Source of the DNA: Escherichia coli
Lineage (GTDB): Bacteria > Pseudomonadota > Gammaproteobacteria > Enterobacterales > Enterobacteriaceae
Strand: one strand, 5' to 3'
NCBI RefSeq assembly: GCF_013122565.1
Contig: NZ_CP053258.1
DNA: 64,000 nucleotides
The notes under the pieces are model-generated. The model was not told the DNA's origin, ran no database searches, and worked only from the letters and a program-made list of their open reading frames with translations. Positions within the stretch are counted from its first letter, which is position 1; every line of letters begins with the position of its first letter. Shown one piece after another: positions 59,784 through 64,000 of this stretch. The translations under genes and the position numbers were made by a program.

Positions 59784-62700
59784 TCAGAGGTTTTTATAAC
59801 ATGTCGCATAAGCAAACCCAAGCTTTTCAAATACGCTTTGATCACCTGTTGCCAGGGAAACTACGTATTGTTCGTTTGAGTTTGCGGGACTCGATGACCA
59901 ATACATATTTGATTGAAAACCAGCTTCAGTCGTGTAATGCCCCATATCTCCCCATTCACTGTACAGTGACCCGATGCCTCGGGAACGACTATGGTTTAAA
60001 TGGTCTCCAAGGGGAAGTGTGTAGCCATTGCTACTGCAAAAATTTTCAGCAAGGCTGTATATCATGAAAGCATCGCCGGCGTTCACCCACCAACTCTTCA
60101 CTCGGATTTCGTATATATAGCTAGGGCCGCCTGTTTTTGGCGTCGCCGTAATCCTCTCCCATTTGCTGCCGACATTTTTAAATGTCACTTTACCGGTAGC
60201 ATCAACATCGACCCAGGAGCCAGAGCTTGAAAACTCATAATCAGCCGCCGTTTTTCCTGGGGCAAAGTTGTCATTATTCAACTGATAATACGCCCCAGTG
60301 AACCCCTGCGAAGGGAATGTAGTTGTCGGTAGGTTAGCACCATTGACTAACACTGTACCGCTCATTATTTTGTCTTCTGCGCGAGTGAATTGTATTGTGG
60401 TACTCAGACCCGCTTGATGAACACCATTCAATACAGGGATCAGCGTTGCGATACCCTCTCCGCCTCCTGTAACAGTGGCTTTGTACTCGCCTGAGAAATT
60501 TTTACTGTAGTCAATTGCACTAACTTGCACATAGGGCACGTTGGTACCTGACTGCACAAATTCCAGCCCTTCAGAAATTTTGATCGGATTGCCTGATATA
60601 TCGTGCAGAACAAGATGTAGCTCAGCACTATCGGTAAAGTCTCCTTTCAATGATGACCGATTGTTCTTAAGGACGGACTGCGAGGCGTCTGCCGGGCCTG
60701 CCACCAGCGTTATATCTACTGTTTGCATTCCACCAGCGGTCGTGACTGCGCTTACCGTGACGCTACCTGTCATCGCTCCTTTCACGCTTGTTGTCGCGAT
60801 TCCGTTTTGATCGGTCACCGCTGTTAATGACGTTAATGTGGCAGAGCCGCTTTTTAAGGCGAAGTACACAGTGAGACCTTCGATCAGGTTACCACTGCCA
60901 TCCTCAACCGTTGCCTTTAAGGTACTTAAATCACTGTTGGTGGCGGCGATAGTCGATGGATCAGCGATAAAGCTAGCAACATGTGCGGTGCTTGAGTTGC
61001 CAGTGACTTTCACGGTTGTCTGTGTCTGTATTGTTACACCGTTATGGAACGATGCAGTCACCGTATATGTACCGACTTTATTGCTGGTCAGAACGACTGG
61101 TGCTTGACCTGAAGAGTTAGTTCTCACTTTTCCGCCACTTAACGTTGCCCCTTCTGGCGTTACGCTAAAGTTGATGACCTGACCCTCCACTGGAGTGCCA
61201 TTTGCAGAAGTTAGCGTTGCCGTCAGAGTTGCACCTGTTGGGGAATTGACACCGATAAGCGGGCTGGACGCCGAGAGTGTCAGTTTTTCATCAATAGCCT
61301 CCAGTTGTTTCTCAAGTGAAGCTCCATTCGCCAGTGATGCTTTCACCATATACGAACCGTTTCTTTCGGGCGTCATAGTGACCTCGGCTATACCCTGCGT
61401 ATTAGTAGACACCGTATTCTGGCTGATGATCATTTGCGAGGATGGTTCCGCACTGAATGTGACGGGTTGATGCGTAACCGGGTTGCCAAACTGGTCGTTG
61501 ACGTGAGCTTTAACTGCTACGTCTTGTGCGACCATTACCTGACCTTCAGGTATATCCAGACTGGTAATCGTCGCAGAATTAACATCTGCACTGGCATTCA
61601 GTAATCGTGAGATGACTTCAGTAGGTTTATCTGCTAAAGAGGCTGAAACTGTTTTCAGTCCGACCTCGGTGCTTGTCACAAGAATTTCAGCGAAACCCTG
61701 ATCATCCGTTTCAACGCTGGTGCTGCTTAGCGTGACGGAGGTTCCGCGGAAATTAACTTTTATGCCTTTTACCGGGTTGCCGTTAGCGTCAGTGACGCTT
61801 GCCGTCATGGTTGCGCCCTCGGTCGTGCTGACGACGAATGAATATACAGAGGTTAAGGAAGCCAGTTTTGCGGTACCTGCATCGGCAATCAACGTCACCT
61901 GTTTCGTATCACTGACACCATAATTGTTCACGCTAACTGTCACGGGATAGGTGCCGGATTTTGTACCGCTCAGTGTAACTTCAGCCTTGCCGTTGATATC
62001 AGTAATGGCGGAACCGCCTTGTCCGAGAGTGAAGCTTGCACTCACGTCTGCCGGTAGCGTGAATGTCACCACCTCATTGGCTAACGGGTTGCCGTTTCCA
62101 TCAGTCACCGTTGCCTGCAGCCTGGTCATCCCGACGTTATTAGCGATAAAGTTGTCCTCGGTAACGTTAAGATTAACCTGCGCTGTGAGCGTATCCGCAA
62201 TAAAATTCACCACCAACTGCTCACTCTTACCGCCAGCCATCGATGCTGTAACAGTATGAGCGCCTGCTTTTGTACCTTTCAGCATGACTTTCGCTTTGCC
62301 TTCAGTATCAGTAACCGCTTTACCGCCATCGCCCAGTGTGAAGTTCGCCCTCACATCTTCCGGCAGAGTAAATGTTACCTCAGTGTTGGCTATCGCATTG
62401 CCTTCTGTATCAGCGACTGTTGCTGTTAGTGTCGTGAGATCGTTATTGTCGGCAATCACCGGATCCTTCGAGGCTGCCAGCGTGATTTCGGCATTCGCGA
62501 CGTTCGGCACATAGGTCACTGTGTGTTGCATCGAATCGCCATTGTCGAGGGTTGCCGTCACTTGATAAACCCCGGCTTTTGTAGCGGTCATGCTTGCGTA
62601 TAAATAGCCGTCGTGGTTGGTAGTATTTATACCGTTATTACTGAGGGTCACGCCTTCACTCGGCGAAACGCTGAGGGTTACCTGATGCAGGGGTACACCA

Positions 62701-64000
62701 TTGCCGTAAATATCATTCACCGTAATGTACAGAGTGGTATCCTCGCCTGCCAATTGTGTGTCATAAAGGGTATAAAGCGAGGTGAGATGTGCCGTAGACG
62801 CATCAGCGTCGACTTGAATGGACGTGCTAAGCGTGGAGCTACCATTTTCCAGGCTAGCTTCAATGGTATCCGGTCTCGCTCCTGTTTCTCTCGAGGAGCG
62901 GGTATTGGTATAAGTGACGGTAGCTTTACCCTGTTCGTTCGTCACGGCTTGGCCACCGTTCGTCATTTCGGCAGATTTTGTTCTGCTGGTAAAGCTCACA
63001 GTCACACCTTTTACCGGAAAGCCATTATTATCAACGACTGTGGCGGTGATGACGCTGCCGGTGCTGTTCTGTGGGGTACCGGCGATTATGCTGCCTGGGA
63101 CAGGCGTCAACTCGATAATTTTTGCCGCCGTTGTGTCGCCAATAAAATGCACAGTTTTGTTGTCGCTGGCACCATTATTAGCCAGTGATGCAGTGACCGT
63201 CTGCTCACCAAAGGCAACGCCTGCGAGAGTGGCCTGCGCGATGCCAGACTCATTGGTATTACTTACTCCCGGGGTCAGGGTGAGTCCTGAAGAGGCTGAG
63301 CTGAATGTTACCGGAAGATTATTCACCTCATTGTCGAATTGATCTTTGACCGTTGCAGTTAGCGTTGCGTTATCGACGCCATTACCTGTTATCTCATTTT
63401 TTGATATCTGAAGGACAACCTGAGCCGAGGTTTTGTCCGCCACAAACGTTACCGGCTGTGAATCACTGGTATTGTTATTACTCAGCGTTGCAGTAACCGT
63501 ATGCGTACCCGCTTTTTTACCTTTGAGTGTGACATGCGCTTCCCCATTGGCCTGGGTGATGGCAATGCCGTTATTTTCGAGGGTAAAGTTTGCCGCGATG
63601 TCCTGTGGCATGGTGAAGGTCACCGTTATTCCCGCCACCGGATGATTCGACGGATCTTTCACTGTCGCCGTCAGCTGCACGCTGTCGCTGTTATTCGTCA
63701 CCACCTGTTGAGCCGGGATGTTCAGGGTGACCTGCGCGTTGCTGGCATCGGGCGCAATATTGACTATCTTCGTATCTCTGTTGCCGTTAAGCAGTATGGC
63801 TTCGGCTGTATGAACACCCAAAACCGTGCCTTTCAGGGTAACTTCAGCAACACCACTGTCGTTAGTATTGCTCGTGCTCTGACTAAGTTGCGTATCTGCC
63901 GGATTGGTACTGAAGGTGACCGGTAGGTCTTTTACTGCGTTATCAAAAGGATCTTTCACTGTTGCCGTCAGAGTCGTCTCATCCACGCCATTCCCAATGA
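59784..64000 (-). CDS. yeeJ: inverse autotransporter adhesin (intimin/invasin family), C-terminal about 1400 aa; 5' end outside window
   Basis: Long array of about 100-aa bacterial Ig-like repeats (LTATVKD...PVTF..., VTFTLP...) ending in a lectin-like domain (WWVNAGDAFMIY...CYKNL); frame is open to the window edge. Confidence 0.9.
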   Translation of the reverse strand, partial: IGNGVDETTLTATVKDPFDNAVKDLPVTFSTNPADTQLSQSTSNTNDSGVAEVTLKGTVLGVHTAEAILLNGNRDTKIVNIAPDASNAQVTLNIPAQQVVTNNSDSVQLTATVKDPSNHPVAGITVTFTMPQDIAANFTLENNGIAITQANGEAHVTLKGKKAGTHTVTATLSNNNTSDSQPVTFVADKTSAQVVLQISKNEITGNGVDNATLTATVKDQFDNEVNNLPVTFSSASSGLTLTPGVSNTNESGIAQATLAGVAFGEQTVTASLANNGASDNKTVHFIGDTTAAKIIELTPVPGSIIAGTPQNSTGSVITATVVDNNGFPVKGVTVSFTSRTKSAEMTNGGQAVTNEQGKATVTYTNTRSSRETGARPDTIEASLENGSSTLSTSIQVDADASTAHLTSLYTLYDTQLAGEDTTLYITVNDIYGNGVPLHQVTLSVSPSEGVTLSNNGINTTNHDGYLYASMTATKAGVYQVTATLDNGDSMQHTVTYVPNVANAEITLAASKDPVIADNNDLTTLTATVADTEGNAIANTEVTFTLPEDVRANFTLGDGGKAVTDTEGKAKVMLKGTKAGAHTVTASMAGGKSEQLVVNFIADTLTAQVNLNVTEDNFIANNVGMTRLQATVTDGNGNPLANEVVTFTLPADVSASFTLGQGGSAITDINGKAEVTLSGTKSGTYPVTVSVNNYGVSDTKQVTLIADAGTAKLASLTSVYSFVVSTTEGATMTASVTDANGNPVKGIKVNFRGTSVTLSSTSVETDDQGFAEILVTSTEVGLKTVSASLADKPTEVISRLLNASADVNSATITSLDIPEGQVMVAQDVAVKAHVNDQFGNPVTHQPVTFSAEPSSQMIISQNTVSTNTQGIAEVTMTPERNGSYMVKASLANGASLEKQLEAIDEKLTLSASSPLIGVNSPTGATLTATLTSANGTPVEGQVINFSVTPEGATLSGGKVRTNSSGQAPVVLTSNKVGTYTVTASFHNGVTIQTQTTVKVTGNSSTAHVASFIADPSTIAATNSDLSTLKATVEDGSGNLIEGLTVYFALKSGSATLTSLTAVTDQNGIATTSVKGAMTGSVTVSAVTTAGGMQTVDITLVAGPADASQSVLKNNRSSLKGDFTDSAELHLVLHDISGNPIKISEGLEFVQSGTNVPYVQVSAIDYSKNFSGEYKATVTGGGEGIATLIPVLNGVHQAGLSTTIQFTRAEDKIMSGTVLVNGANLPTTTFPSQGFTGAYYQLNNDNFAPGKTAADYEFSSSGSWVDVDATGKVTFKNVGSKWERITATPKTGGPSYIYEIRVKSWWVNAGDAFMIYSLAENFCSSNGYTLPLGDHLNHSRSRGIGSLYSEWGDMGHYTTEAGFQSNMYWSSSPANSNEQYVVSLATGDQSVFEKLGFAYATCYKNL

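Follow-up and report, generated by a model that had tools for sequence, protein, structure and literature searches.

The distal YeeJ passenger of Escherichia coli is probably a diverged 11-domain stalk that changes length through a 609-nt unit and a 23-nt motif

YeeJ of E. coli is a surface-exposed protein that promotes biofilm formation and contains 13 Big repeats and a C-type lectin domain; its LysM domain was reported experimentally to bind peptidoglycan, and YeeJ showed no adhesion to the cells tested (PMC5595812). Two yeeJ variants differ by 906 bp, and a functional difference between them was not detected (PMC5595812). Both the Big-domain architecture and this long/short variation are known and were published in 2017 (PMC5595812). 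We analyzed a window of 64,000 nt from E. coli contig NZ_CP053258.1 (assembly GCF_013122565.1), which ends inside an allele of this gene.

The 3' part of yeeJ lies on the minus strand at 59784..64000, based on the open reading frame list and its translation. We found a single open frame from the window edge to the stop codon at 59784-59786, with 1404 codons inside the window, and the gene runs on past coordinate 64000. Its best E. coli matches are 97.4-97.6% identical and are annotated as inverse autotransporter adhesin-like protein YeeJ. Over 4217 nt it is 97.4% identical to yeeJ as annotated in strain 162.2, and over 3891 nt it is 94.6% identical to K-12 yeeJ; among 5426 complete E. coli genomes, none exceeds 97.6%. 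Neighbouring yeeJ are open reading frames for a family-9 glycosyltransferase (58470-59522, at the yeeL/family-9 position), shiA (56839-58155) and amn (55283-56893), in the gene order of strain 162.2 and K-12; a single-sequence PDB search with the glycosyltransferase gave no match. By chromosomal position and high nucleotide identity to K-12, the gene is the yeeJ orthologue. The sequence-only reading had named both yeeJ and its Ig-like domain type correctly, in agreement with the E. coli matches, the locus and the Pfam Big_1 family.

Using Pfam and segmentation with a self-built HMM, we found an array of 11 Big_1 Ig-like domains at 60702..63998 (minus strand), each 94-109 aa long. From 5' to 3' in the gene, the units occupy 63998-63750 (cut by the window edge), 63749-63438, 63437-63126, 63125-62799, 62798-62505, 62504-62196, 62195-61872, 61871-61584, 61583-61302, 61301-60984 and 60983-60702. 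In the window translation, Pfam detected Big_1 (E = 2.6e-171) and Invasin_D3 (E = 3.9e-89) in 11 stretches each, and the one-unit profile gave 11 domains with E-values of 1e-24 to 1e-37; a 12th domain was not significant with this profile (E = 0.03). The earlier count of more than ten tandem repeats is borne out, with the first of the 11 units incomplete, and the motifs quoted for them (TLTATVKDPFDNAVKDLPVTF, VTFTLPEDVRANFTL, VTFTLPADVSASFTL and HTVTA) are present in the translation. The array had been drawn across 59784-64000; it holds for approximately 60702-63998 only, and 59787-60701 is a non-repeat C-terminal cap. Repetition in the YeeJ protein is far above chance, and pairs of units in the window have a median protein identity of 31% and a maximum of 52%.

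The cap (59787..60701, minus strand, 305 aa) is predicted to begin with a degenerate Ig-like domain and to continue with a region of homology to invasin D4-D5 that has a C-type lectin-like tip. A profile of the cap from 16 homologues matches Yersinia invasin 1CWV at chain residues 149-464 (E = 1.9e-16), which points to a distal Ig and C-type-lectin-like cap comparable to invasin D4-D5 and intimin D2-D3. As a single sequence, the cap scored below the Pfam cut-offs for both Invasin_D4 (22.8 bits) and Intimin_C (17.7 bits) and had no match in the PDB, and its AlphaFold2 model from a 16-sequence alignment was unusable (pLDDT 36). One protein, P0001, matches the cap with 100% identity. The array matches intimin 6TPL weakly (E = 2.8e-5), and the NCBIfam intimin models reached 122.6 bits on the window YeeJ against a cut-off of 1400. 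YeeJ is an inverse autotransporter (type Ve secretion; intimin/invasin family), and the passenger of tandem Big_1 domains that marks this class was found with 11 domains by Pfam and 11 by the HMM. In the syntenic orthologue (97.4% identity where the two sequences overlap), IAT_beta (PF11924) spans residues 144-419 (E = 1.1e-113); by orthology, a beta-barrel translocator is predicted for the window's own gene, whose barrel part lies beyond 64000. We know of no ligand for YeeJ and of no integrin or Tir binding. Some members of the class carry a periplasmic LysM domain; at E ≤ 0.001, the orthologue showed no LysM family in its first 1000 aa, a part that lies beyond the window, whereas a LysM domain is reported in PMC5595812.

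The sequence-only reading had further proposed that the entire array is a DNA-level tandem repeat that readily gains or loses units through homologous recombination and is collapsed by short-read assembly. Repeat number does vary between strains, and one Logan short-read contig begins at long-form nt 4158, the edge of a 77-nt exact repeat of a 609-nt unit, as this explanation would have it. However, Tandem Repeats Finder detected no array in the window, a period of about 300 included, and the best DNA self-match there is 178 nt at 69.7%. Codon-aligned unit pairs are at most 58% identical in DNA (median 44%), exact direct repeats among the window units reach no more than 14 nt, and off-diagonal 12-mer pairs are only marginally above chance (8 observed vs 1.1 ± 1.3 in codon shuffles). 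The self dot-plot suggested as a check shows no diagonal in the region and leaves the repeats diverged at the DNA level, close to the outcome that the proposal itself had named as speaking against it. In addition, the length differences observed all lie in the 609-nt unit or a 23-nt motif, with none in the other nine domains, and the other fragmentary yeeJ gene calls trace to IS insertions or frameshifts, not to collapse. Fragments of approximately 500 aa were likewise considered as products of assembly collapse and rejected, as one is a frameshift split and the others stop at contig ends (long-form nt 6355-6362) that are not near any repeat. Recombination-prone repeats and assembly collapse are already contradicted for 60702-63300, and we consider instability of the whole array very improbable.

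Judged by their sequences, the Ig units of the window are old and diverged. At a DNA identity of only about 44% between units, most of the array should be genetically stable, and since nine of the eleven domains are without a recombination substrate, assemblies of this nine-domain stretch should be trustworthy. Antisense open reading frames in the yeeJ region had also been taken as shadows of the repetition. We found 7, in agreement with codon-shuffled genes (4.8 ± 1.6, with 15% of shuffles reaching 7); they are shadows of codon composition.

The sole part of the window with a near-identical partner is 63301..63998 (minus strand), the last copy of the 609-nt two-domain repeat, whose partner lies 609 nt upstream in the gene, mostly beyond 64000. 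The first 698 coding nt of the window align with long-form nt 3769-4466 at about 97% identity and a second time with nt 3160-3857, at 89.0%. The long-form gene itself shows the repeat as nt 3036-3860 and nt 3645-4469, which are 88.7% identical and share exact runs of 124, 111 and 77 nt; of its 469 repeated 12-mers, 445 fall on a single +609 diagonal, as does every repeated 20-mer and 30-mer. Head-to-tail copies fit for homologous recombination, sharing exact stretches of tens of bases, were found only in this unit and not in the in-window array. Within alleles the 609-nt copies are 9-16% diverged; hence, the events that produced them appear old, and current instability may be low.

Among strains, we observed four discrete yeeJ length classes: the K-12 short form and forms with one, two or three 609-nt copies. 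The short form is 7020 nt as annotated in K-12, the one-copy form is 7394 nt and frameshifted in strain WWCOL-256, the two-copy form is 7983 nt in strains 162.2 and 1303, and the three-copy form is 8592 nt in LH50-c and 8613 nt in JNE070796; database cluster members of 2863 and 2872 aa count toward the three-copy class. The expectation that repeat number differs among strains is met to this extent, through one 609-nt unit and one 23-nt motif rather than through a hypervariable array. Three copies occur in 2 of the 51 sampled genomes that carry the long-type segment; a repeat-only query for such alleles returned 319 genomes at 80% coverage or more, which is not a clean count because overlapping pieces were joined. 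A search of 5.8 billion proteins returned only fragments of at most 534 aa, without a length distribution.

The alignment of K-12 to the window starts at coding nt 325 (window 63674) and leaves out the adjoining 63675..64000 (minus strand). Based on this alignment and on PMC5595812, the segment 63675..64000 is the 3' end of the 906-bp fragment carried by long yeeJ variants but missing from K-12. Of 5426 complete E. coli genomes, 1277 contain the segment with a coverage of at least 80%. The window allele is not the short form; since the window ends inside the gene, its copy number can be 1, 2 or 3.

Two copies of a 23-nt motif encoding LTATVKDP lie in this region on the minus strand: CTGACGGCAACAGTGAAAGATCC at 63949..63971, in an a-type domain, and CTGACGGCGACAGTGAAAGATCC at 63652..63674, the b-type copy, which is the downstream edge of the K-12 short-form junction. 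At this junction, the K-12 sequence switches at the motif from the a-type to the b-type domain, whereas in the longer forms the a- and b-type domains are each complete and about 40% identical to each other. The motif was also considered as a specially conserved recombination signal, which was rejected, as a conserved peptide and common codons suffice and three synonymous sites vary. If the K-12 short form were ancestral, longer forms would have arisen by successive domain duplications, and duplication is needed anyway for the series of one, two and three copies. However, the K-12 junction domain is a chimera, with an a-type N-terminal strand and a b-type body, and deriving two complete diverged types from one chimera is less parsimonious than one motif-to-motif deletion. 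Hence, an ancestral short form is unlikely.

Alternatively, the length variants could be mainly distributed, and perhaps created, by strains exchanging divergent yeeJ segments and not by repeated within-gene recombination in individual lineages. Between alleles, the 5' parts are about 98% identical and the 3' parts 86-96%, with the switch near the repeat region. Over 326 nt the window and strain 1303 are 100% identical, against 97.4% overall, and the short junction recurs in a strain with only 86.5% identity in its 3' part. One short junction on very different 3' alleles, together with mosaic identity, suggests that allele exchange spreads variants and blurs inferences about their origin. Yet exchange accounts for spread and not for origin, since the 609-nt copies and the chimeric domain still need an event within the gene; it complements the within-gene explanation and does not exclude it. 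As the main source of length variants, we regard exchange as possible but doubtful.

We therefore favor the reading, with a probability of roughly 85%, that the distal YeeJ passenger is a diverged 11-domain stalk whose length changes via the 609-nt unit and the 23-nt motif. The 11 Big_1 domains, anciently duplicated and strongly diverged, would form the stalk and hold the putative invasin-like Ig and C-type-lectin-like tip away from the outer membrane. The younger 609-nt a-b unit, in 1, 2 or 3 tandem copies, would have changed in number by unequal homologous recombination between copies. The LTATVKDP-coding motif, common to consecutive a and b domains, may be a site of recombination or slippage. 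As to the direction of events, we infer that a motif-to-motif deletion took out 297 nt if it struck a one-copy allele, equivalent to a loss of 906 nt in a two-copy allele, and that the K-12 short form with its one chimeric domain would be the product. That the unit and the motif form a dedicated length-tuning module, with stalks of 13, 14, 16 and 18 domains selected to pass different O-antigen or capsule layers, seems rather improbable to us.

Little is at stake for YeeJ itself, as the protein and its variants are already published. For annotation, the lesson is that a striking repeat in the protein need not mean instability in the DNA; long reads are needed for copy number only at or beyond the window edge, at the 609-nt unit. 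One- and three-copy alleles could be used to test stalk length against display past surface polysaccharides.

The closest described system is YeeJ of E. coli K-12 MG1655 and UMN026 (Martinez-Gil et al. 2017, PMC5595812), which the window resembles in gene, locus, Big_1 array and C-type-lectin-like tip; the window also has the 3' end of the 906-bp fragment by which the UMN026-type long variant is defined. Two variants are described in PMC5595812, and complete genomes add the one-copy and three-copy forms of the 609-nt unit, which is a small addition to the published two-variant picture. Invasin (Yersinia pseudotuberculosis, 1CWV) and intimin, like YeeJ, have an inverse autotransporter passenger of Ig-like domains capped by an Ig and C-type-lectin-like superdomain; invasin has 4 Ig domains, far fewer than the 11 of YeeJ within the window or the 17 detected for its complete long form. 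Yersinia ruckeri YrIlm (cited in PMC6714894) shares with YeeJ a tandem Ig passenger, and its repeat number can differ and can mislead assembly. In adhesins of the YrIlm type the repeats are almost identical in DNA, whereas YeeJ repeats just a single unit, of 609 nt, with copies about 89% identical, and has about 44% DNA identity across the rest of the array.

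We found the minus-strand gene at the end of the window is yeeJ, as the sequence-only reading had called it: genes annotated as inverse autotransporter adhesin-like protein YeeJ match the region at 97.4-97.6% identity and share its locus, with a family-9 glycosyltransferase gene, shiA and amn as neighbours. Against K-12 yeeJ, 3891 nt align at 94.6% identity. A single open frame extends from the window edge to the stop codon (59784-59786) and has 1404 codons inside the window; the part corresponding to the N-terminal IAT_beta barrel of the yeeJ orthologue (E = 1.1e-113) lies beyond the edge. 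Among complete E. coli genomes, the best match of the yeeJ region is 97.6%, and identity over the remainder of the window likewise peaks at about 98%. Hence, the source E. coli lineage is without a close representative in the collection.

Elsewhere in the window, the segment 30000-50000, with propanediol-utilisation (pdu), cobalamin (cob) and galactitol-type PTS genes, is covered to at least 80% in just 145 of 5426 complete E. coli genomes (top identity 98.1%). Convergent with yeeJ is yeeL (58470-59522, plus strand), an intact gene for a 350-aa family-9 glycosyltransferase that is a pseudogene in K-12. Its product matches LPS heptosyltransferases I and II weakly (39.5 bits; cut-off 185), and sequence search found no solved relative of it. 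By analogy with heptosyltransferases that modify some autotransporters, one may speculate that it modifies YeeJ.

The repeats reported from sequence alone are real at the protein level. Every motif quoted for them occurs in the window translation, and Pfam search of that translation found 11 stretches of Big_1 (E = 2.6e-171) and likewise 11 of the related model Invasin_D3. A single-unit profile also gave 11 domains (E-values 1e-24 to 1e-37), with a 12th match not significant. The array occupies 60702-63998 (minus strand) as 11 tandem units of 94-109 aa and is followed by a 305-aa C-terminal cap outside it (59787-60701, minus strand). A profile of 16 cap homologues matches residues 149-464 of Yersinia invasin 1CWV (E = 1.9e-16), in agreement with the C-type lectin tip described for YeeJ (PMC5595812). 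Single-sequence searches of the cap left the lectin-like tip below threshold, and its predicted structure was unusable (pLDDT 36). The array probably serves as a stalk projecting this lectin-like tip.

At the DNA level, there is almost no periodicity inside the window, essentially the outcome that the sequence-only reading had named as refuting it. Tandem Repeats Finder reported no array of period near 300 in the window, and sensitive self-blastn returned four matches, the best 178 nt at 69.7% and one a 23-nt motif with one mismatch. Between units, codon-aligned DNA identity has a median of 44% (maximum 58%) and protein identity a median of 31% (maximum 52%). Repeated 12-mers number 8, compared to 1.1 ± 1.3 in codon shuffles, and form no diagonal; exact direct repeats reach 14 nt at most. 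For RecA-dependent recombination, E. coli requires roughly 20-30 nt or more of exact homology. On that criterion, 9 of the 11 domains are without a recombination substrate. The proposed instability of the array is not supported inside the window and holds only for a 609-nt unit at and beyond its edge.

This unit, two Ig domains (a and b), is evident in the 7983-nt long form of the closest relative. There, coding nt 3036-3860 match nt 3645-4469 at 88.7% identity and share exact runs of 124, 111 and 77 nt; 445 of 469 repeated 12-mers, and all repeated 20- and 30-mers, fall on the +609 diagonal. The window begins at long-form nt 3769 and so contains just the last copy (63301-63998, minus strand), with the partner copy beyond coordinate 64000. 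We infer that copy number shifts by unequal homologous exchange.

Comparing strains, we found that domain number does vary, in four discrete classes set at the 609-nt unit and a 23-nt motif: a short class (K-12 MG1655, 7020 nt as annotated; YZ22MPE6, 7101 nt), one copy (WWCOL-256, frameshifted, 7394 nt), two copies (the long form; strains 162.2 and 1303, 7983 nt) and three copies (LH50-c, 8592 nt; JNE070796, 8613 nt). Proteins of 2863 and 2872 aa in the databases have sizes consistent with the three-copy class. Of 5426 complete genomes, 1277 carry the long-type 326-nt segment (window 63675-64000), in nearly every case at two places; the exceptions were instructive.

Relative to the long form, K-12 yeeJ has an in-frame gap of 906 nt (302 aa, three domains), corresponding to the 906-bp fragment already published as distinguishing yeeJ variants (PMC5595812). 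The junction sits within the 23-nt motif CTGAC(A/G)GCNAC(A/G)GTGAAAGATCC, which encodes LTATVKDP and recurs in four successive long-form domains (coding nt 3187, 3484, 3796 and 4093), two copies being in the window (63949-63971 and 63652-63674). Taking 297 nt, the distance between adjacent motif copies, from a one-copy allele gives the short form, which probably arose by deletion between motif copies. We consider the opposite route, duplication from a short form, less likely, given that K-12 has a chimeric domain at the junction, a-type until the motif and b-type from there on; both types, only about 40% identical to each other, are complete in the longer alleles.

The identical short junction recurs on a 3' allele just 86.5% identical, and identity along yeeJ is uneven, as in a mosaic. 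Hence, exchange between alleles helped spread the variants. The divergent 3' class (YZ22MPE6, L013 4940-12040; WWCOL-256, L014 2091-9484; and a third comparison locus, L012 4941-9535) shares 95-98% identity with the long form upstream of the repeat region but 86-89% downstream of it, a pattern indicating mosaic alleles that switch near the 609-nt unit.

Antisense ORFs had been read as shadows of the repetition. Within the yeeJ coding sequence, seven reach at least 80 aa, compared to 4.8 ± 1.6 in codon-shuffled versions, 15% of which reach seven; they are ordinary shadows of codon composition.

For the suggested collapse in short-read assemblies we found no evidence. One Logan contig starts at long-form nt 4158, the edge of a 77-nt exact repeat, consistent with a break in a small-k graph at the 609-nt unit; the remaining fragmentary calls reflect a frameshift, IS insertions or contig ends distant from repeats. 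Two draft contigs (L009 1-70; L010 1-60) stop at long-form nt 6355-6362 (roughly window 61400), where there is no repeat. A recurrent C-terminal YeeJ fragment of 521 aa lies about 60 nt downstream of these ends; in another assembly (L008), it arises from a frameshift. Many YeeJ fragments of about 490-536 aa lie on contigs of about 15.5 kb.

In many other genomes, yeeJ is broken by IS elements or is a remnant near the yersiniabactin island. IS elements often strike the gene or its immediate flank, as at three comparison loci (L007 5640-6853; L006 1197-1894; L012 9621-10647). In that order, an O157:H7 strain has yeeJ split by an IS3-family element, in TUM9812 IS1A adjoins a truncated yeeJ, and an O15:H12 strain has the gene truncated by an IS3 remnant. 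In ATCC 11775 (L011 6946-9753), a degraded remnant in two pieces, matching only window 60169-62561, adjoins the yersiniabactin island (fyuA, ybtE); we estimate from a spread sample that roughly 40% of complete genomes carry such a remnant.

The YeeJ feature in the window is already known; alleles with one or three copies add a little to the literature searched. In published experiments, YeeJ promoted biofilm, and no difference in function was detected between the long and short variants (PMC5595812).
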